This document shows positions 5,969 through 15,345 of a stretch of DNA of 40,933 nt, one piece after another. The first letter of the stretch is position 1. Each line of letters opens with the position of its first letter. Below the pieces are notes generated by a model. It was given only the letters and a program-made list of their open reading frames with translations, did no database searches and was not told the DNA's origin. Position numbers and translations under genes: made by a program. This stretch comes from a virus, in IMG/VR virus record IMGVR_UViG_3300028804_000025, positions 1 through 40,933 of that record; one strand, written 5' to 3'.

Positions 5969-6493
5969 CTATGTTTGCGCTGTACGCTGCGCCAGCAGTT
6001 CAAACTTCTGCGCGCTCCCATTGGTCGTGCCGTACCAGTAGCCCAGCACTAGCATGGCAATGGTGTCCATCAGTCCCAGCACTCGACCCAACACCAGTGG
6101 ATCAGTATTTTCTGGGTAGCCAATGAACAAAACAGACAGCTCGCAACCCAACGAGATGGTCAGCAGCAGCACGGATAGCCAGAATAGGTGTTTTTGCGTT
6201 CCACCGGCAACATTGGCTTTGCGCGCACTGTCGCGGTCTTGAAACGCCAGATCGGCGTATTTGAACCCGCGCTCTTTTTCGTTGTTCTGGTATTCCAGCT
6301 CCAGCTTCTTTAGCTCGCCAATTTGCTCTGGCGTGAGGCTTGCAGATTGGATCACATTGGCGATCTTGTCTTGGGTGGCTTCGCTTACCCCCAGGACATT
6401 GCCCAAGGCCGACACAGCGACACCCCCTAACGGACCCAGCAAGGCTGTGGCCACGGTAGGCGCGATAGATTTGAGTACAGATGTCCAGTCCAT
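5969..6493 (-). CDS. holin, GTA-type 3-TM holin-like (174 aa)
   Basis: N-terminal LLGPLGGVAVSALG, a central charged coiled segment and C-terminal TM segments. It sits immediately downstream of the endolysin. Confidence 0.6.
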   Translation of the reverse strand: MDWTSVLKSIAPTVATALLGPLGGVAVSALGNVLGVSEATQDKIANVIQSASLTPEQIGELKKLELEYQNNEKERGFKYADLAFQDRDSARKANVAGGTQKHLFWLSVLLLTISLGCELSVLFIGYPENTDPLVLGRVLGLMDTIAMLVLGYWYGTTNGSAQKFELLAQRTAQT

Positions 6494-6495
6494 GA

Positions 6496-6975
6496 TCAGT
6501 TGTCCTCTGTTGCGTATTCAAGGTCTCTGGCTGCACGCATAGCCCAGCCCTTGCCAAAGCTTGGCCAACTGCTGAGAGATGCCCAAAACCGCAGGCGCTG
6601 GGCCATGAAACGCATCAGCACATCATTGACATCTGCGCTGGCCAGGGCGCGCTTGCTGATGGGGCCAAAGACGCCATCGTCGGCCACGCCCAATGCCGCC
6701 TGCAGCTTGCGAATCGCTGTGCTGATGCCGCTGTTGACCGCAAAGTCAAACACCTGGAATACGATTGCTGGGTGAGCATCAGTGCCGATCTGGTCCCAAA
6801 AATCGCGCTTGTAGATGGTCTTAGCTTGGTCGCGGGTCAAGTGCTTGATGTCAATATTGGGGTAGCTGCGCTTGCTGATGCCCCAATTGGTTTCACCCCC
6901 AGGGTCAGCGGGATTGCAGACGTATCCACCCTCATTGCCGATCAGGCGGTCAAAGGCTTGGTCAAAAGTCAGCAT
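6496..6975 (-). CDS. endolysin, GH108 N-acetylmuramidase with PG_binding_3 domain (159 aa)
   Basis: FDRLIGNEGGYVCNPADPGGETNWGIS (GH108 catalytic region) and a C-terminal ...FMAQRLRFW... region. ATG 6975 follows GGAGAGGGGG. Confidence 0.8.
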   Translation of the reverse strand: MLTFDQAFDRLIGNEGGYVCNPADPGGETNWGISKRSYPNIDIKHLTRDQAKTIYKRDFWDQIGTDAHPAIVFQVFDFAVNSGISTAIRKLQAALGVADDGVFGPISKRALASADVNDVLMRFMAQRLRFWASLSSWPSFGKGWAMRAARDLEYATEDN

Positions 6976-7084
6976 GGTTAAGCCCCCTCTCCATTGCGGC
7001 GACGATCTTGCTGAAACTGAGTTTTGAGCGCATCCCACGGCGCTTCATTCGGCCATCGCTTGCGGGTGATCCAAATGTTAGGTT

Positions 7085-7762
7085 TCACAACAGCCCCTCC
7101 TGCACGCATTCGCGCGGGGGTTCGGGCGGTAGTAGCGTGCCCTGCGCCTGGGCGCGACTGATGCGCTCGCAGGCGATGTCGAAATACTTGCGCTCGCGCT
7201 CGATGCCGGTGAACGCCTTGCCAAGCTGCGCGCACGCTACGCCAGTTGTCCCGCTGCCCATGAACGGGTTTAGCACCGTCTGCGCCTTGTCGGCAAAGTC
7301 CAAGCACCACGCCATCACCTGCACAGGCTTCTGTGTAGGGTGTACCGCGCCATCCTGCGCAATAGCCGCCCGGTTCAGCGTCATGGAGCGCAGCGCCTTG
7401 TCCAGCGTGCTGTACGCCAGTTCGCAGTCGCTCTGGCTGATCCGCTGCCCCTTGTCCCACACCAGCCACCCCATGCTTGGCCTCAGGTGCTGCGGGTAGT
7501 AGTTGGCGCCCCAAATAATCAGGTTCGCGGCCTTCTCGTGCATCAACCCGAACAGCCACGCGGGCGGTGCGTCAGCGTCCCAGCCCATGAACTCATAGCC
7601 CTTGTGCCCGCCGTGGCTGCTGGTGCTCGGTGGCTTGCCGTCGCGGCCAATCCCATAGGGCGGGTCCGTCAGCAGCAAGTCGTGCACGGGCAGCAGCGGC
7701 AGCACCTCGCGGCAGTCTCCGTGCCACAGTTCCGCGTTCCCGATCACTACTTTCTCAGCCAC
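7085..7762 (-). CDS. DNA N6-adenine/N4-cytosine methyltransferase, beta class (225 aa, GTG start)
   Basis: DPPY (LLLTDPPYGIG) precedes NPFMGSGTTG. AAGGAG lies 6 nt upstream of GTG 7762. Confidence 0.85.
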   Translation of the reverse strand: MAEKVVIGNAELWHGDCREVLPLLPVHDLLLTDPPYGIGRDGKPPSTSSHGGHKGYEFMGWDADAPPAWLFGLMHEKAANLIIWGANYYPQHLRPSMGWLVWDKGQRISQSDCELAYSTLDKALRSMTLNRAAIAQDGAVHPTQKPVQVMAWCLDFADKAQTVLNPFMGSGTTGVACAQLGKAFTGIERERKYFDIACERISRAQAQGTLLPPEPPRECVQEGLL

Positions 7763-7820: not shown

Positions 7821-8054
7821 CTACGGCGCCCGCTTAGCTCGAATGTTGTGCGTCAAAATCCGCCATGCAGCCGCCACCACTCCTGGAACTTGCCCATTGC
7901 CAAGGGCTTTAAGTCTGTCCACCCTGTTGGCCACCCCATGAGCCACTCGACCCAAGGCGGGTTCAGTTGCCCATGCGGCATGTGTCGCCCGTCTGCTTTT
8001 TCTTCGCGGGCTACCGCAAAGCTCAAAGAGTCCTGCTTCGCTACTCCGTCCCAT
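7821..8054 (-). CDS. DNA (cytosine-5)-methyltransferase, C-terminal part (same frame; ATG immediately follows the TAA)
   Basis: EPALGRVAHGVANRVDRLKALGNGQVP carries the motif X GN..VP. The frame is continuous with 8594. Confidence 0.7.
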   Translation of the reverse strand: MGRSSEAGLFELCGSPRRKSRRATHAAWATEPALGRVAHGVANRVDRLKALGNGQVPGVVAAAWRILTHNIRAKRAP

Positions 8055-8590
8055 TTAATTGCTGTCTCCATCGTGCAACTCGCATCGCGAGGGCTGTGTG
8101 TTGGTGTTGGCCAAAATCCAGATTCGTTCGCGCTTGTGGTTTGCGCCAATGGCATTCGCTCCCAGCACTCCCCATTCCGCATCGAACCCCATCGCGGCCA
8201 AGTCTCCAAGCACGGTTCCGAGTCCGCGAAGAGTGAGCATTGGGGAGTTTTCCACGAGCACGAAACGGGGTCGTACTTCGCCAATAATCCTTGCCATTTC
8301 CCGCCATAGGCCGGAGCGCTCGCCGGCAAGTCCTGCGCCATTTCCGGCAATCGAAATGTCCTGGCATGGGAAGCCTCCAGAAACCACGTCAACAATTCCG
8401 CGCCAAGGTCTTCCATCAAAGGTCTGCACGTCATCCCACACGGGGAACGGCGAAAGAATTCCATCGTTCTGTCGCTGGCACAGAACAGCAATGGCGTAGG
8501 GCTGCCACTCAACGGCGCACACGGTGCGCCAGCCGAGCAATTTACCGCCGAGTATTCCTCCACCAGCGCCTGCGAAAAGTGCCAACTCAT
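7853..8590 (-). CDS. 245-codon ORF in a second frame overprinting the C5-methyltransferase gene (status uncertain)
   Basis: ATG 8590 lies 8 nt after the same GGAGG. There is no stop for 245 codons. It contains the WPRWGSMRNG, WPTPT and NPPWVEWLMGWPTGWTDL strings. Confidence 0.35.
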   Translation of the reverse strand: MSWHFSQALVEEYSAVNCSAGAPCAPLSGSPTPLLFCASDRTMEFFRRSPCGMTCRPLMEDLGAELLTWFLEASHARTFRLPEMAQDLPASAPAYGGKWQGLLAKYDPVSCSWKTPQCSLFADSEPCLETWPRWGSMRNGECWERMPLAQTTSANESGFWPTPTHSPRDASCTMETAIKWDGVAKQDSLSFAVAREEKADGRHMPHGQLNPPWVEWLMGWPTGWTDLKPLAMGKFQEWWRLHGGF

Positions 8591-9223: not shown

Positions 9224-9319
9224 TTGTTCCAGCCTCCATCTTCTGTGTTTCCAGCAAGCGCCGGGCTTGCTCACCTTGTTTTTGCAGCCAATCCACGAGC
9301 AACGCATAACACGTCAGTC

Positions 9320-9350
9320 AACCGGACGTGCCGCAAGCGGCCCGCCGGTT
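9320..9350 (-). other. GC-rich intergenic hairpin H2
   Basis: AACCGG..GCCGC-AA-GCGGC..CCGGTT, after the stop at 9360. Confidence 0.45.
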
Positions 9351-9359
9351 ACTTCGGCG

Positions 9360-9659
9360 TTATGCCTTGCAATACGCCGGCCGCTCAGACGGGCCTTTCC
9401 CTGCCTCCGCAATCACCTGCGGCGTCCACTCAAACTCTGGCCTTGCCATCACCGGCGTCTCGTCTGTGATGCGCAGGCGTGCGATGTCAAACCACTGCGA
9501 TTCACGCAGTTTTCCGTCTGCGTCCGCGCCTGGATTCACCACCGCTTGGATGCAGCCGTACAGGTCAAACCCGACCGTCGCCACCACTCCCTTGAAACCA
9601 GTTACGCGGTCTTCTACCCGCATACCGAGAAAGTCCAAATGCTTTTTCAGGTTCACCAT
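9360..9659 (-). CDS. hypothetical protein (99 aa)
   Basis: ATG 9659 is preceded by AGGAAA. The composition is protein-like (VTGFKGVV..GC.QA.V.P....G...ESQWFD). Confidence 0.6.
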   Translation of the reverse strand: MVNLKKHLDFLGMRVEDRVTGFKGVVATVGFDLYGCIQAVVNPGADADGKLRESQWFDIARLRITDETPVMARPEFEWTPQVIAEAGKGPSERPAYCKA

Positions 9660-9705
9660 TTCTGTTTCCTTTCGTTGTAGTTACGCCAGGCATAACCCGG
9701 CAGTC

Positions 9706-9740
9706 GAGCTGACCTGCGCGAAAAGCCGCGCAGTCAGCTC
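9706..9740 (-). other. GC-rich bulged hairpin H3, overlapping the stop codon at 9739-9741
   Basis: GAGCTGA(C)CTGCGCG-AAAAGC-CGCGCAGTCAGCTC. Confidence 0.5.
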
Positions 9741-10038
9741 ACTTTTGCGTCGCACGCCTCTTTGGCGGCTCTCTATGCATGACATAGTGGTCGGGCACGC
9801 GCACGCGCCAGTACATGGCTGTGACAGCCTGCACTACGGCAATGCCAATCAGCGCAAGTACGGTGGATGGATGCGCAGGCAGCACGCAAGCTGCCACGGC
9901 CAAGATGATGGATATGGTGGCTAGCAGCGCGAAGGCGTGTCGTACAGCTGGCACGGTGTTGTTATCGGTCTTGCGCAGACGGCAAAAACTGGTGAAGGCC
10001 AGATACCCAGCGAGCGCAAATTGGGAAAGTTCAAGCAT
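9739..10038 (-). CDS. small membrane protein with 3 predicted TM segments (99 aa), holin/antiholin-like
   Basis: Three hydrophobic stretches and a basic C-terminal tail (REPPKRRATQK). 8-nt overlap with the upstream gene. Confidence 0.5.
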   Translation of the reverse strand: MLELSQFALAGYLAFTSFCRLRKTDNNTVPAVRHAFALLATISIILAVAACVLPAHPSTVLALIGIAVVQAVTAMYWRVRVPDHYVMHREPPKRRATQK

Positions 10039-10408
10039 CTTGCCCTCCTTTCACGCCCAGCAAGCGGGCTCTGATCGCAGGCCAGGCGAGACCACTGAGC
10101 GTGTCCCACTTCCAGCCGATCAGGTAGGCTGCAATGCCTGTCACAAACTCTATCGGGAGCTGGATGTAGTAGACGACGATGTGTGTAGCGGGCGCTGTAA
10201 ACAGCAGCGCGGTAAACGCAACTCGTAGCAAGAACAGGCCATCGTGCACGATGGTTTGCCCGCTCTTGCGTGCTGACAGCGCTGTGAACGCCCCCAAGAC
10301 GGCCCCAAACAAGACATAAACATATGGCCCAGCCACAGGCCCGGCTAGCATGACAATGAGCCCCAGCAAGCCGACGCTGGGCGCGACAGCGGTTGGCTCG
10401 GTCATCAT
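10031..10408 (-). CDS. membrane protein resembling a class I (lambda S-type) holin (125 aa, tandem Met-Met start)
   Basis: 3-4 hydrophobic segments. The C-terminus YLIGWKWDTLSGLAWPAIRARLLGVKGG parallels lambda S [23 protein letters not shown] (memory). ATGA coupling at 10405-10408. Confidence 0.45.
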   Translation of the reverse strand: MMTEPTAVAPSVGLLGLIVMLAGPVAGPYVYVLFGAVLGAFTALSARKSGQTIVHDGLFLLRVAFTALLFTAPATHIVVYYIQLPIEFVTGIAAYLIGWKWDTLSGLAWPAIRARLLGVKGGQDA

Positions 10409-10704
10409 GCCCCTTTGGTCTTTGTGAGGTTCCATGCGCCAACAATGGGCGGGCGGCCAGCTTCTTTGAGAATCTGGTTTCGGCTGGCATACAGCGCGAT
10501 CTGCTCCCGCGCTGCGCTGACGTGGCTAAAGTAGTACGGCCCGGTACCCGACGCCTCCCATGCTTCGCCAATCGTCCCAGGCCCCACAATATTGGGCTGG
10601 AGCGCTTGCCAGGCCAAAAAACGCTTCTCTTCAGCCGTCAGTGACTTGGGGTTGACGTACCACGCCGGGTGGGCGGCCATGTTGGTTTGGACAAGGGTTT
10701 TCAT
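10405..10704 (-). CDS. hypothetical protein (99 aa)
   Basis: An ORF with tight spacing to both neighbours. Confidence 0.55.
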   Translation of the reverse strand: MKTLVQTNMAAHPAWYVNPKSLTAEEKRFLAWQALQPNIVGPGTIGEAWEASGTGPYYFSHVSAAREQIALYASRNQILKEAGRPPIVGAWNLTKTKGA

Positions 10705-10707
10705 CGA

Positions 10708-11115
10708 TCACACTTTCTTGATGGAATGCCATGGCTCACCTGCGTGGTAGCCACTGACTGAGTGCCAGACGTAAGGGAGGCCAAAGAAGTGCATGACCAT
10801 GCTTTGCCGGTTGTCCAGGATCAAGCCATTGCTTTCCGCCACGCAATGCCATTCCCCCGTCTCGACCTGGCACAGCACATAGCGGCCAGGCAGGCCAGCG
10901 GCGCGCAGATGCCCGACGCACCAGGCGGCAAAGTCGTCGCAATCGCCATGAATCTCGCCCGTTCTGGCTTCGGCCCGCTCCAGCTCAGTCAGGCAGGCCC
11001 AGTACTCTGCCCTGCCAAAGCATTGCTGATCGCTCAGGTAATGGAACTGCACCTTGGCAGCGGCAAAGATGCTGTTAACAGTCGTGGCCACGGGTTCGCG
11101 CCTCTGTGCAGCCAT
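10708..11115 (-). CDS. transglutaminase-like cysteine peptidase (BTLCP/LapG-type) domain protein, leaderless as encoded (135 aa)
   Basis: HGDCDDFAAW (Cys), GEWHCVA (His) and LILDNRQ (Asp), in the order of the BTLCP catalytic triad. Confidence 0.6.
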   Translation of the reverse strand: MAAQRREPVATTVNSIFAAAKVQFHYLSDQQCFGRAEYWACLTELERAEARTGEIHGDCDDFAAWCVGHLRAAGLPGRYVLCQVETGEWHCVAESNGLILDNRQSMVMHFFGLPYVWHSVSGYHAGEPWHSIKKV

Positions 11116-11200
11116 GTGGGGGTGGAACCTCGGGGCCCAACTCAAACTGGGCAGCAGCGCACCCAGCCAGCAGCGCAGCAAATAGCACGGCGCGGATCAT
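11075..11200 (-). CDS. 41-aa lipoprotein ORF (lipobox LLAGC), not in the ORF track
   Basis: MIRAVLFAALLAGCAAAQFELGPEVPPPHGCTEARTRGHDC. ATG 11200 overlaps the upstream stop (ATGA). The ORF overlaps the BTLCP start in another frame. Confidence 0.45.
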   Translation of the reverse strand: MIRAVLFAALLAGCAAAQFELGPEVPPPHGCTEARTRGHDC

Positions 11201-11730
11201 GGCAGCACCTCGGGCATGGGGTCGGCAGGCTGCTCGGCGATGGGCGCCGGGTGACGCAGCGCCAGCAGATCAAGCACCGCCTGCGGCGCGCCATCAATCA
11301 CGGCCTGGGCGGCTGCGCGCTCAGCGGTGTCTGCCTGAATCGCGGGGTTGGGCACCTCCACCTGATTGGCATCCAGGCCAGCCGATTGCATGACGGTGGC
11401 GGGGCCATCAAACGGTGGCCGCGCCAGGCGGGCCTGGGCGGCTTCGTAGGCCATTGCCTGGCTGAGCAAAGCCATATCGGCGCGGGCTTGCCGCCCAGCA
11501 TCAGCAGCGGCTTCGGTCACTGTCTTGACCAGGATGATTTCGCCCATTTCCGACGCTGTTGCTGCGCGCATCTGCGCGATATGGCCCAGCATGATCGTGC
11601 GCAGTTCGTCCTGGCGCTCGACGCTGACAACGCCCGCAACAATGGACCTGACTCGATTGTCAATGTCGGCGTCTGACCACACGTCATTGGCCAGCAGATT
11701 GATGAATCTGGGGATGCTGATGGTGGTCAT
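11197..11730 (-). CDS. hypothetical protein downstream of the tail fibre (177 aa), possible fibre assembly factor
   Basis: The function is suggested by position only. ATG 11730 lies 4 nt after the fibre stop. Confidence 0.55.
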   Translation of the reverse strand: MTTISIPRFINLLANDVWSDADIDNRVRSIVAGVVSVERQDELRTIMLGHIAQMRAATASEMGEIILVKTVTEAAADAGRQARADMALLSQAMAYEAAQARLARPPFDGPATVMQSAGLDANQVEVPNPAIQADTAERAAAQAVIDGAPQAVLDLLALRHPAPIAEQPADPMPEVLP

Positions 11731-11733
11731 GAT

Positions 11734-14700
11734 TTAGGCCCTCACGCACATGACAGAAACCCACACCGTGTTACCCGGTGCAGTACCGAACGTGACCGTT
11801 TCACGGAAACCGTCAGTCGATACCGTGTAGTCCTTGGTTGACCCCTGGCGCTTCAATGTGCCAGCGGAGTACACAGCTTTGACCGTGTAGCCCTGCTGGA
11901 CAGTGAAGGCGGTTTGACTGGTCACGGCATCGAAGTCGAAGAACACGGGCTCCTTGCCCAGCGCTCGCCTTGCCTCCGCTCGTCGTCTGATCTCGTCGCG
12001 CAGCAGGAATGCAGGTTGGTAGAGCTTGCCGGAGCTTGCCCCGCCGACCAGCACAGCGCCCTGCCCTGCGCTGATGGAGGTGACAGCGCCCACGGTTGTG
12101 ACTTCTGAGTCAACGCGCAGCAGATCGCGGAAGCCAGTGCGGCCCCAGCTTGTGCCAGCGTGCCAGGTGTCGGTTTCCTCGTCATAGGTCAAGGCTGTGA
12201 CTGCGTTGGATGACCCGGCCAAGGTGCATTGCGCGCCAGCAGCAAACAGGGGCTTTTCTGTGCGGTAGATATAGGCGATCTGGTCTGCGCTGGGGGCGGT
12301 GGCGCCGATGCGCCAGAGGGCCATTGAGCCAACGAATGGATATGAGGCAGTGTGATTTACTCCCAGGCGCAGCAAGGCCGTGGCGTTAGCCATTGTCAGT
12401 GACGGCGACGCGGCCGATGCGACTTGAATCCCGTTGATATATAGGTAACACGTATTGCCGGAACGGATGACGGCTACCAACGCCCAGGCATTGACAACAA
12501 GAGCGCCCGCACTCAAATTGATCGTCCCGGTCCCATCAGTTACCGCAACATTGACCACACCAGTTGTAGCGGCAACATAGGCATAGATGCGCGAACCTGT
12601 TGCATCACTGTTCTGCCTTCCAAAAAGGTATCCCAATCCAGCCAGAGAACTGGGGTTCACCCACCCCATCACACAGTAGTCACCCGTCCCAAAATCAAGA
12701 TCAGCGCTGTAGGCTTCTTCGAGGTAGTTGCTTGCGCTGAAACCTGAGTAAGCCACCAAGGCAGCACCAGCGGCCACGGAGGTTTTGGTCAGGGTGCCGA
12801 CAACGGTGATGGGCTTAGCTTTGACTGAGCGGTCGGGTTCGGCAAGCTTGCAGCTGATGTTGTCGAATGCGTTGGTCGCGCCAGAATCATTCCTATTACC
12901 TGCAACGATATAAGTCGTCGTCGCAGCAGCCACAAACGAGAATGAATATGCCCCCGAGGCGTTGACGTTAATTGCAGCGCCACCAACAGACGTTGGAACT
13001 GCAACAGAAGTTTCCACACGGGCGTATCCACCACCAAAAACAATGTCTGCGGAGACTCGATAAGTTTTACCAACTATTGTTGGGATTGCCTGGTAAATAA
13101 TCCCGTTTGTTGCCCCATTATTTGTGATGCTGACACTTCCAGCAGACACAGAAACTGTGGGCGAATTTCCTGCGGTCCATCCGCTTGTGTCTGTCGTAAA
13201 CGTACCATTTGTGACAAGCTCACCCGACCCCACCACAGTCTCAGCCACGGTATCAGCCAGCCAGGAGCGCTTGATGTCGCCCACCATCCAGCCGGTGGCG
13301 TAGTCTTTGGTGATGTAGGACACCATGCCTTTGGTGGGCGCTGCGGGGTTATCCCGGAACAGCATCATCCCGACTGGGAAGCTAGCCGCCGCGCCATACC
13401 GCTGCCCCACCGTCTTAACAGTTGGCCCCATGCCGACAATCGTGGCAGGTACTGATTGGGTCGAATACTGTTTGATTGCCGAGAAGGAGGCCGAAAGCGT
13501 TCCTACGGGGGGGTACTCGCAAATATTTCCGCTATCCCACCCAACCGCCCATAGACGCCCTTTGGAATCAATACTCGCGCCGTACATTCGATCTGTCGTA
13601 GCTGCGCTATTCACCACTGACCCATCATGCTTGATCACGGACACGCCGCCACCCGTTGCGACTGCGATGGTGGGCACAGCCAGGCCTGTCAATGGGTCAA
13701 TGGGGGCGTCTGGGAGGACCGTCATCGCAACGGCATTGATCCCTCGATTGACGATGCCTACAGTCGTCCCTGATACGTAGTCACTTACTGAAACATTGCG
13801 ATTTGCAACAGTGCAACGGTTGTATTCGGTAGTTGACGAAATCCTAAGGAAAGTGCTGTCATTGCCAAAGTCGATGTGACCAAGGCCACCGGATGCAGTG
13901 CTGACGCCAACCACAACTTGGCCATTTCCCGCTGCAATGCAGGTGATGGCGGTTACGCCGCCACCTGAATACACAGCCCTGCCGTTCGCTGCGACAAACA
14001 CCATCCACATAGGGCAACCAGGAGCACTTGCGTCATAGATCGCCACACGGGCCGACTCCGCAACGATCAAGGCCAGGGCGGGGAATTCGCGGGCGTTGCC
14101 CCGGAACACCTCGGCAACAGTGGGGCTTGACGCACCCAGCGTGTAAAACTTTTTGTCTGTGGTGTTCTGGAAGTAATCACCCGCAACGGCACCAGCGGTA
14201 GCCCAGGCAGCGGCTGCGGTGGCTTTCTGGCCCAGCCATTTGCCTGTCTGGATGGTCTCTGTGTACCAGGATTTATCGGTGCACCGCTTGCGCCATTGCC
14301 CACCGTCAGAGTCTTTGTTCGTGTCGTAAAGAAACGAGGCAACCACGGCACCGCTGTGCACGCTCTGACTGATCGCAGCCAGGGATTCAGCAGGGGCTGT
14401 GGCGCTGCCCCAGGCGGCAATGGCGGCATCGCTGGCGGCTACGGCTGATGCACTGGCCGTGGTAGCAGTGCTGGCGCTTGAGGCGGCAGCAGCGGCATTG
14501 GTGGCTGTGGCTGCGACATTGCCTGCTGCACCTGTTGCGCTGTTTGCTGCGCTGGTGGCACTGGTAGCGGCGTTTGAAGCTTGTGCGGTGGCCGTTGATG
14601 CACTGGTGGCAGCGCCGGTGGCTTGCGTAGTGGCCGTGGCCGCGCTGGTGCTGGCCGATGTGGCTGAGCTTGCGGCGGCGGTGGCGCTGCTGGCGGCATT

Positions 14701-15345
14701 GGTGGCCGATGTGCTTGCGCTGGTGGCGCTGTTAGCTGCGTTGGCCTCGTTGGTGGCGGAGGCGTTTTTGCTGGCCAGGGCGGCTGCGGCAGAGGCAGCG
14801 GCAGCGGTGGCGCTTGAATCTGAGGCGCTGGCCTGGGCCGTGGCTGTGCTTGCGCTGGATGCGGCAGAGGTGGCCGACGATGCTGCGCCGGTGGCGCTAT
14901 TGGCTGCGGCGGTTGCTGACCCTGCGGAAGCGCTGGCGCTTGCGGCGGCGTTGGTGGCCTGCGTGGTCACAAGCGCCAGCGCGCCCTGCGCGGCGGCCAG
15001 CGCTTGCTGTGCGGCGTCGATGGGCGGGTAAGGCTCTTCGGTCAGGATTTGGTGCAGGTTGCAGGCGCTGTTGGGCACCGATACCGTTTTGCTAAGGATC
15101 AGCTCGCCGGTGCCTGGGCGGGTGACGGTGACTTGGTACATGGACCCATTGGCGCCGAGGGCATTGGGCCAGAGCTGCAGCACGGCGGTGCCGGTGGCGT
15201 CTGCGGTGGTGGTGACGCTTGCGGGCACCACAAAGCCGCCATAAATCTCGGCCTTGGTGAGCTTGGCCTTGACGATGGCGCTGGCAACGGGGGTGCCATT
15301 TTGATCGACGGCGATGCAGGTGACGTTGACGAGGGGGAGTGACAT
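11734..15345 (-). CDS. tail fibre / host-recognition protein (1203 aa)
   Basis: An about 200-aa Ala/Ser/Thr/Asn quasi-repeat stalk. A CBM-like segment (GELVTNGTFTTDTSGWTAG...GKTYRVSADI). A LamG/concanavalin-like segment (DFGTGDYCVMGWVNP...CYLYINGIQVA). AAGGA RBS. Confidence 0.85.
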   Translation of the reverse strand: MSLPLVNVTCIAVDQNGTPVASAIVKAKLTKAEIYGGFVVPASVTTTADATGTAVLQLWPNALGANGSMYQVTVTRPGTGELILSKTVSVPNSACNLHQILTEEPYPPIDAAQQALAAAQGALALVTTQATNAAASASASAGSATAAANSATGAASSATSAASSASTATAQASASDSSATAAAASAAAALASKNASATNEANAANSATSASTSATNAASSATAAASSATSASTSAATATTQATGAATSASTATAQASNAATSATSAANSATGAAGNVAATATNAAAAASSASTATTASASAVAASDAAIAAWGSATAPAESLAAISQSVHSGAVVASFLYDTNKDSDGGQWRKRCTDKSWYTETIQTGKWLGQKATAAAAWATAGAVAGDYFQNTTDKKFYTLGASSPTVAEVFRGNAREFPALALIVAESARVAIYDASAPGCPMWMVFVAANGRAVYSGGGVTAITCIAAGNGQVVVGVSTASGGLGHIDFGNDSTFLRISSTTEYNRCTVANRNVSVSDYVSGTTVGIVNRGINAVAMTVLPDAPIDPLTGLAVPTIAVATGGGVSVIKHDGSVVNSAATTDRMYGASIDSKGRLWAVGWDSGNICEYPPVGTLSASFSAIKQYSTQSVPATIVGMGPTVKTVGQRYGAAASFPVGMMLFRDNPAAPTKGMVSYITKDYATGWMVGDIKRSWLADTVAETVVGSGELVTNGTFTTDTSGWTAGNSPTVSVSAGSVSITNNGATNGIIYQAIPTIVGKTYRVSADIVFGGGYARVETSVAVPTSVGGAAINVNASGAYSFSFVAAATTTYIVAGNRNDSGATNAFDNISCKLAEPDRSVKAKPITVVGTLTKTSVAAGAALVAYSGFSASNYLEEAYSADLDFGTGDYCVMGWVNPSSLAGLGYLFGRQNSDATGSRIYAYVAATTGVVNVAVTDGTGTINLSAGALVVNAWALVAVIRSGNTCYLYINGIQVASAASPSLTMANATALLRLGVNHTASYPFVGSMALWRIGATAPSADQIAYIYRTEKPLFAAGAQCTLAGSSNAVTALTYDEETDTWHAGTSWGRTGFRDLLRVDSEVTTVGAVTSISAGQGAVLVGGASSGKLYQPAFLLRDEIRRRAEARRALGKEPVFFDFDAVTSQTAFTVQQGYTVKAVYSAGTLKRQGSTKDYTVSTDGFRETVTFGTAPGNTVWVSVMCVRA

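Follow-up and report, generated by a model that had tools for sequence, protein, structure and literature searches.

The 40,933-nucleotide virus record IMGVR_UViG_3300028804_000025 of IMG/VR, analysed here over its whole length and called the window below, carries two overlapping minus-strand genes, one for a 41-amino-acid (aa) lipoprotein and one for a cysteine protease of the BTLCP/LapG type, which a first-pass annotation had described as a leader and a protease domain separated by one frameshift. We conclude with high confidence that they form a conserved two-gene split and that the break is neither an error nor a switch. A fuller reading, whose chances we judge to be about evenly balanced, is that the locus is an old, maintained split of an exported, lipid-anchored BTLCP protease into two coupled genes, combined with holin-gated docking of the products. 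The pair and the signals within it are as follows.

10708..11091, minus strand: BTLCP/LapG-like cysteine protease gene, without a signal peptide; catalytic codons Cys 10941..10939, His 10848..10846 and Asp 10815..10813
11075..11200, minus strand: small lipoprotein gene, 41 aa; predicted signal peptide at residues 1-13, lipobox LAGC, stop codon TAA at 11077..11075
11078..11110, minus strand: C-terminal Cys-loop motif GC-x-E-A-R-x-R-G-x-D-C, spanning C31..C41, with C41 the last residue
11101..11104, minus strand: GAGG Shine-Dalgarno-like site inside the small gene (Glu-Ala codons), 9 nucleotides (nt) 5' of GTG 11091
11118..11122, minus strand: C5 run (plus-strand G5) within CCA CCC CCA, the codons of Pro26-Pro27-Pro28 of the small protein
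11208..11211, minus strand: GAGG Shine-Dalgarno-like site, 7 nt 5' of the ATG of the small gene

The product of the small open reading frame (ORF) is MIRAVLFAALLAGCAAAQFELGPEVPPPHGCTEARTRGHDC. Its segment MIRAVLFAALLAGC has the features of a lipoprotein signal, with a charge at R3, the hydrophobic region AVLFAALL and a LAGC lipobox that fits the consensus used here, [LVI][ASTVI][GAS]C. Cys14, the residue predicted to be lipidated, is encoded at 11161..11159, the predicted mature peptide has 27-28 aa, and the Ala at +2 suggests, under the E. coli rule, sorting to the outer membrane. The ATG (11200..11198) shares the letters ATGA with the TGA of an upstream 177-aa ORF (11197..11730), and all that the first-pass annotation said of the sequence here, including the coupling and the lipoprotein signal, holds. 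No other credible lipobox ORF occurs on either strand of the 40.9-kb window. In the periplasm the C-terminal motif is probably closed by a disulfide, and an AlphaFold2 (AF2) model of the small protein contains a short helix at residues 31-36 (pLDDT about 88-90 there).

The protease reading frame is open from 11181 to its stop at 10708 and includes ATG 11115, from which residues are numbered below. Its product scores 30.2 bits against PF06035 (Peptidase_C93/BTLCP), where the Pfam gathering cut-off is 27, and 24 bits against PF01841 (Transglut_core), where it is 23. A word-indexed search yielded 22 homologues, all of 122-144 aa, beginning MT(V/A)D.IF and without a signal peptide; precomputed PF06035 matches are on record for 20 of them. 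The triad Cys59, His90 and Asp101, within GDCDD, WHCV and LDN, is invariant in an alignment of 23 homologues. The AF2 model is confident (pLDDT 92.2, pTM 0.85), and its six best Protein Data Bank matches by Foldseek are all LapG, with 4u65_E, 4fgo, 4fgp and 4fgq in the lead (template-modelling scores 0.66-0.71, probability 1.0). GDCDDFA of the window aligns with GDCEDFA or GDCEDYA of LapG; D58, D60 and D61, beside C59, are conserved, align with the LapG DCED and are candidate Ca2+-binding residues. From neither of its two candidate starts, GTG 11091 and ATG 11115, does the ORF begin with a hydrophobic segment, and the export signal sits on the separate 41-aa ORF. By hidden Markov model (HMM), triad and fold, the protein belongs to Peptidase_C93 and is missing the signal that this family usually carries on the same polypeptide; the first-pass annotation was right on the family and on the absent signal peptide alike. 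Comparison of 9300..11800 with 50,697 phage records at the DNA level gave no match, a protein-mode search reached solely distant Xanthomonas jumbo phages and Shewanella phage 3/49, and a promoter and terminator scan of 9300..12000 returned nothing useful.

The case for two genes is carried by their relatives. The DNA 5' of the protease gene was read in 74 loci drawn from metagenomes, IMG/VR and GTDB genomes, to which more loci were added afterwards. At least 45 of the loci, with protease identities down to about 30%, have an ORF of 38-94 aa whose end lies at the protease start or slightly within the protease gene. Its products share a pattern, namely a lipobox, then ...P.PF..G.EV.PP.GC.EAR.RG.DC and a stop. 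The lipobox Cys, P28, G30, C31 and the terminal Cys (C41) are invariant in a 35-sequence alignment; all 35 aligned partners have a lipobox, lipoboxes were also recognised by eye in further partners, and the conserved residues are retained across many synonymous codon changes. Over the last 24 codons, the pooled Nei-Gojobori ratio of non-synonymous to synonymous differences (pN/pS) is 0.37 in the frame of the small ORF (with pS saturated, at 0.80) and 1.25 and 1.27 in the two other frames, the proposed-fusion frame among them. A profile of the small protein searched against 5.8 billion proteins retrieved 39, of 38-94 aa, unnamed or labelled 'hypothetical' and with no Pfam domain. Because of the 35-sequence invariance, the pN/pS and the profile retrieval, we count the 41-aa ORF as a real gene. 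Both halves are under purifying selection, separately started and co-occurring in dozens of diverged phages.

Some loci show other forms of the pair. In L079 (2641..2970) the partner has 109 aa, and an N-terminal transmembrane (TM) anchor replaces the lipobox ahead of the same C-terminal GC...C motif. In L058 (4294..4476) a partner-like lipoprotein lies downstream of the protease gene, the order being reversed. The cultivated jumbo phage PhiXhv-12 of Xanthomonas (L076, PV764601.1, 2834..3399) has the pair as two 'hypothetical protein' coding sequences of 47 and 140 aa with a 1-base overlap, one gene downstream of two genes annotated 'Rz-like spanin'.

Other phages carry both parts in one polypeptide. 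An exhaustive HMMER search with the protease profile against 1.84 billion cluster representatives gave 1151 hits, the best 150 of which were classified. By pattern, 91 of these 150 are short and signal-less (a further 30 were left unscored, most of them 118-152 aa long), and about 22 have an N-terminal lipobox extension within the protease ORF. In eight or nine of the latter the whole motif of the small protein leads straight into the protease. The fused forms with the joint right after the terminal Cys are P0077, P0078, P0087, P0121, P0156, P0200, P0210, P0067 and P0080; P0077 runs ...LLLGGC AISKKFQTGDEVAPPKGCIDLLFRGGDC and then RYHKVMDDV..., P0078 runs ...YGCLEGRHREVDC and then MYIYHELSDIF..., and in P0080 the motif stands behind a Sec signal of the non-lipoprotein type. 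Four fused forms were confirmed on their contigs, and P0087 was seen on three contigs; a search of viral contigs with the fused P0087 and P0077 gave no match. Fused and split protease domains are 34-59% identical, against a median of 37% between split ones, and as these identities overlap, the two states are interleaved and must have toggled more than once. At the junction, fused L087 and split L035 are 2 nt apart in length. Essentially every split partner retains the Cys pair, whereas only about 9 of the 22 fused forms do.

The first-pass annotation had asked for this comparison of fused with split homologues, and both forms exist. Its view that leader and protease belong together is thus upheld by natural fused orthologues; its placement of the break at the C5 run is not, the real break lying after the terminal Cys. 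We also considered that the Cys-loop motif might be the N-terminal part of the BTLCP domain, and dropped this because, when a profile of the fused orthologues is aligned to LapG, the match begins only past the terminal Cys. The Pfam match still goes no lower than profile position 33 when the small protein is joined to the protease, whether head to tail or through the one-base deletion; P0087 alone extends to position 20 of the BTLCP profile.

Further relatives would be exported by other means. Sec signals occur on the proteases of Shewanella phage 3/49 (L075; MKLIAAALLVLASFTSHA/DE), P0076 and P0080, and TM anchors on L069, L070, L074 and P0075. L031 (3709..4402, the same as P0202) has a Tat signal, MRSVSRRGFLSGLALVVAVPSTVVAQ, on the protease and a partner lipoprotein gene besides. 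Because of these Sec, Tat, TM and lipobox relatives, and because LapG and HvyA are periplasmic, we infer by analogy that the whole phage protease family probably acts in the periplasm. The Tat signal is unseen in the nearest relatives of L031 (L029, L046, L049, L051 and L055). In the 461-aa P0122, an apparent intein with a LAGLIDADG homing-endonuclease domain interrupts the catalytic motif (GD/C VLATEK ... VAHN/C EEFA), and the BTLCP profile matches its C-terminal part only.

The same relatives bear on whether the split is an artefact. On that reading, an error or a recent inactivating frameshift at the C5/G5 run conceals the true gene, a single lipoprotein protease of about 164 aa. Removing one C from the run does join the frames into one ORF, giving ...PEVPPHMAAQRREP and a product of roughly 164 aa as the first-pass annotation said, and fused orthologues exist. 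However, close relatives from four other samples, with 98% protease identity, have the arrangement of the window: L002 and L004 have an identical CCA CCC CCA CAT at the nucleotide level and L001 and L003 the same peptide, so that both the run length and the split recur in independent assemblies. The split is also present in the at least 45 diverged loci, and the low pN/pS of 0.37 in the small-ORF frame is found downstream of the run. The run itself consists of proline codons in a GC-rich codon usage and is wanting in relatives, where PP is encoded by CCG CCG, CCA CCA or CCT CCT; three loci (L081, L011 and L013) have no homopolymer of at least 4 bases anywhere in the small ORF. Slippage at the run would moreover bypass the best-conserved stretch of the small protein, deleting the invariant GC...C motif that natural fusions keep. 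Homologues are split too, and the 41-aa ORF is conserved independently, which is the observation that the first-pass annotation had itself set against a frameshift. We regard an error or recent frameshift as vanishingly improbable.

The functional junction is the end of the small ORF, 11075..11091, rather than the C5 run. Its commonest form, CAT GAC TGY TGA (His-Asp-Cys-stop), doubles as ATG ACT G.. (Met-Thr), the start of the protease. The window and its nearest relatives have CAC in place of CAT, a change that is silent in the small ORF and turns the protease ATG into ACG. With the usual ATG lost, the protease could start either at GTG 11091, for a product of 127 aa beginning MATTVNSIF..., or at ATG 11115, for one of 135 aa, which is the choice of gene callers. 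GTG 11091 is the likely start on the sequence layout; L035 and L042, which have no ATG, can start only at the corresponding GTG, 17 nt short of the small ORF's end. In most of 45 loci the protease starts 1, 7, 11, 14 or 17 nt before that end. Where we inspected the junction for a Shine-Dalgarno-like site (the window, L005, L035 and L042), GAGG or AGGGGG, supplied by the Glu-Ala-Arg codons of the small protein, lies 7-9 nt 5' of the protease start. Relative to the small ORF, the protease is in the +1 frame at 29 of the 45 loci and in the +2 frame at 15; at the one left it is in frame, behind a TAA. This layout is that of ordinary translational coupling. In L014, L015 and L016 (3403..3555 in L014) the small ORF ends ...RGVNVKYRLRH, as against ...RGVEC in L017 and L018; an indel near the junction removes the terminal Cys, the protease start is displaced accordingly, and these may be junctions in transition.

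The junction also has features that could suit a switch, in which recoding or phase variation nearby would yield the lipopeptide plus a full lipoprotein-protease and set the exported share of the protease. The existence of fused orthologues shows that nature has a working fusion product. A +1 shift at the stop within the common 11-nt overlap (CAT GAC TGY TGA C) would give ...HDC-D.., matching the natural fusion junction. Upstream, the protease frame stays open for 62-122 nt in the window and the loci closest to it, a figure that falls to only 17-29 nt in many loci. Yet the junctions compared by codon contain no conserved slippery site or homopolymer, and many loci have no homopolymers. A tRNA-Cys is unable to re-pair from UGY to GYU. 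Frame relations vary between loci; the spacing of 7-9 nt between the Shine-Dalgarno-like element and the start is that of initiation and not of a prfB-type shift; and start codons are maintained, alternatives having remained when the ATG was lost in the window. The phase-variable or recoding switch raised by the first-pass annotation thus does not agree with a protease that has its own ribosome-binding site and start, nor with a fusion-frame pN/pS of 1.25 against 0.37, and we consider it very improbable.

What a maintained split might be for is suggested by the company that the pair keeps. The genes around it in the window, including those of lysis, are these.

5969..6493, minus strand: 174-aa holin-like protein of the GTA 3-TM type (phrog_1544), adjoining the endolysin gene
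6496..7038, minus strand: endolysin with GH108 and PG_binding_3, about 3.7 kb downstream of the pair
9739..10038, minus strand: 99-aa protein with 2-3 TM segments, co-occurring with the 134-aa protein; homologues in L019, L005 and L058
10031..10435, minus strand: 134-aa holin-like protein with 3-4 predicted TM segments; a homologue directly follows the protease gene in L019
10405..10704, minus strand: 99-aa ORF directly after the protease gene, found in close relatives only
11197..11730, minus strand: 177-aa ORF with no TM segment, between the tail-fibre gene and the pair; not conserved beside the pair in relatives
11734..15345, minus strand: tail-fibre gene, 1203 aa, with Laminin_G_3; such a gene usually lies upstream of the pair, as it does in L001, L005, L075 and L081

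Upstream of the pair there is usually a tail-fibre or tailspike gene. Downstream of it, where ORFs were screened for predicted TM segments and selected ones checked with HMMs, a lysis cassette is very often present. The pair is followed by Phage_holin_3_2, a Peptidase_M15_3 endolysin and an Rz-like spanin in L011; by a 122-aa gene and an Rz-like spanin with an embedded lipobox ORF in L014 and L017; by one gene and an Rz-like spanin in L022; and by an M15 endolysin and a GTA-type holin in L020. L041 has GTA_holin_3TM downstream of the pair, and in Shewanella phage 3/49 the order is protease, M15 endolysin, holin. Multi-TM proteins come after the pair in the window, L019, L005, L013 and L058; the 134-aa protein of the window (10031..10435) has no HMM hit, and its topology and position point to a possible holin. 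The window therefore holds two holin-like sets, the GTA_holin_3TM-like gene by the endolysin and the multi-TM pair (9739..10435) downstream of the protease. Between the protease cluster and the endolysin lie two adjacent ORFs that match DNA methyltransferases, 7085..7762 and 7853..8590, both on the minus strand, the first matching only the C-terminal part of N6_N4_Mtase.

The mechanism that we propose for the split is holin-gated docking, which we hold tentatively and would call somewhat unlikely as it stands. Early in late gene expression the lipopeptide would be exported, lipidated and sorted to the outer membrane, and the signal-less protease would accumulate in the cytoplasm, probably inactive. 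LapG-type enzymes are Ca2+-dependent, and cytoplasmic inactivity is proposed because of this need. When the holin opens the inner membrane, the protease would reach the periplasm in the manner of a signal-less endolysin; to our knowledge, a holin lesion is the only established route to the periplasm for a phage protein without a signal. There it would dock on the pre-positioned Cys-loop peptide, rebuilding the anchored enzyme of the fused orthologues, and the rebuilt enzyme may then cut an envelope target, such as an outer-membrane tether, a surface adhesin or a capsule component, as an accessory step of lysis or release. The Cys pair, near-universal in the split partners and present in only about 9 of the 22 fused forms, would suit docking that becomes important when the two parts are no longer covalently joined, and the defined short helix at residues 31-36 of the AF2 model fits docking as well. 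Rather unlikely, in our estimate, is the complete version of this idea, a holin-gated split enzyme whose anchor and docking segment is exported in advance, which is assembled and activated at the outer membrane when the holin fires, and which arose by repeated fission.

Several observations weigh against docking and against a part in lysis. No convincing alignment was obtained between the Cys-loop motif and the N-terminal region of either LapG or the BTLCP profile. Placement at the outer membrane is not universal, the partner in L079 being TM-anchored and not lipidated. Some contexts are non-lytic, with the pair before a capsid protease in L006, among replication genes in L079 and between tail-fibre-like genes in L081. 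In the window, a recognised endolysin and holin stand 3.7 kb away from the pair. Several carriers have a normal Rz/Rz1, so that the pair is not essential there for disruption of the outer membrane and is at most accessory. It could also be that the split is simply tolerated and that the halves are now unrelated in function.

That last thought leads to the possibility that the two genes are independent, the lipopeptide being an o-spanin-like or Cor/Llp-type exclusion lipoprotein and the protease a cytoplasmic enzyme acting on a host or phage protein. A tail-fibre or tailspike gene usually precedes the pair, and the place after it is a classic one for morons and exclusion genes. The window has no lipoprotein ORF besides the 41-aa one, and no Rz1 beside the endolysin; about 80% of the family members (best 150 of 1151) have no export signal. 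Lipoprotein genes without a linked i-spanin are on record, in 31 phage genomes (Kongari et al., PMC6139136). Against independence, adjacency and coupling persist to about 30% identity, even where the order is reversed (L058) or the anchor changed (L079); in the fused forms both parts act as one periplasmic protein, and the variants with a Sec or Tat signal or a TM anchor point to a substrate in the periplasm.

The o-spanin half of this reading, which the first-pass annotation had offered as a lipoprotein gene overlapping an unrelated one, meets further difficulties. No Rz/Rz1-type spanin pair was found beside the endolysin or anywhere in the 40.9-kb window, where the 41-aa ORF is the sole credible lipoprotein ORF and so no Rz1 was found. 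An i-spanin-type neighbour is also wanting: TM segments are absent from both the 177-aa ORF before the small gene and the protease after it, and the neighbours vary between loci. Relatives that have Rz/Rz1 nevertheless retain the pair. L014 and L017 have an Rz-like i-spanin with an embedded lipobox ORF besides it, and L011 and L022, where i-spanins alone were sought, have Rz-like i-spanins besides it. With no i-spanin partner for the lipopeptide, relatives that carry their own Rz/Rz1 and two genes linked across deep divergence, we reject an o-spanin identity, and judge that independent genes as a whole are improbable.

A different partnership would make the Cys-loop lipopeptide a tethered, propeptide-like inhibitor of the protease that protects the infected or lysogenic cell or times the enzyme. 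Control by an N-terminal segment or a partner protein is common among papain-like and transglutaminase-like proteases, and small inhibitors are familiar from T4 Spackle, which acts on gp5 lysozyme, and from the effector-immunity pairs of type VI secretion systems. The tether may be either an outer-membrane lipid or, as in L079, an inner-membrane TM helix, which suits a binder better than it does a device specific to the outer membrane, and the Tat-exported protease of L031 has a partner. VASH-SVBP complexes are among the fold matches, and LapD sequesters LapG by a short loop (PMC4359373). However, until lysis a protease without a signal has no need of an inhibitor in the periplasm, Sec-signal forms like that of L075 have no partner, and the fused forms hold the motif covalently with no obvious processing site. 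We give an inhibitor or immunity pair a low probability. A virion-borne tail lysin with a Spackle-like inhibitor was also considered and set aside as a poor fit with the Sec, Tat and lipoprotein-fused relatives.

Most phage copies of BTLCP are without the usual export signal of the family, and pairing with a conserved and mostly unannotated lipoprotein of 40-60 aa, together with the fused orthologues, would explain this oddity. The small gene is often missed by gene callers and unnamed where it is called, and it defines a new family of micro-proteins. That the pair so often heads a lysis cassette suggests a part in breaking down the envelope or in releasing progeny. Junctions of this kind should not be 'repaired' as frameshift errors in annotation. 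If holin-gated assembly were true, it would be a new way of timing envelope cutting and would add an unrecognised class of accessory lysis or release proteins; PhiXhv-12 is a possible experimental system for the pair.

Set beside known systems, the pair resembles several in part. Endolysins are either signal-less and holin-dependent or of Sec and SAR types. The phage proteases show a similar range, most being signal-less and some having Sec or Tat signals or membrane anchors, but they are LapG-like with no known muralytic fold, and their anchor is a separate polypeptide. Vasohibin-SVBP likewise combines a transglutaminase-like Cys protease with a small, obligatory partner and is among the weaker fold matches; it differs in being eukaryotic and cytosolic with a helical chaperone as partner, and the likeness is one of fold match only. 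With lambda Rz1 and other o-spanins (PMC6139136) the small protein shares a lipobox in a short lipoprotein, a proline-rich mature part, periplasmic cysteines and a frequent location near lysis genes. Unlike them, its gene is neither embedded in nor following an i-spanin gene, it coexists with Rz-like spanins in L011, L014 and L022, and its product is fused to the protease in other phages and TM-anchored in L079.

Viral BTLCP has been met before. It is reported as the most frequent 'auxiliary metabolic gene' in river-water viruses, with horizontal spread between viral clusters (PMC11283719), and, from the passages searched, probably belongs to the same phage gene family; those passages treat it as a single gene and describe no partner, split or fused state, or link to lysis. 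The literature that we searched contains no description of the partner lipoprotein, the split/fused polymorphism or the linkage to lysis cassettes.

Among cellular proteins, BTLCPs are generally periplasmic, with LapG and HvyA the studied cases (PMC4241560, PMC4359373). HvyA of Caulobacter is a Sec-exported BTLCP of 272 aa that blocks capsulation and needs its triad (PMC4241560); although cellular and unsplit, it shows that the family to which the phage protease belongs can remodel surface structures relevant to phages. HMM scans of about 17 ORFs between 4930 and 16167 turned up neither LapD nor LapA, no search having been aimed at them. The closest parallel is LapG of Pseudomonas fluorescens and Legionella pneumophila, which belongs to the same Pfam family, has its triad in GDC(D/E)D and is the best structural match. 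At 17-22% identity, the phage core of about 125 aa corresponds to LapG minus its roughly 40 N-terminal residues and its signal, and in the window the place of that signal is taken by the separate 41-aa lipoprotein gene.

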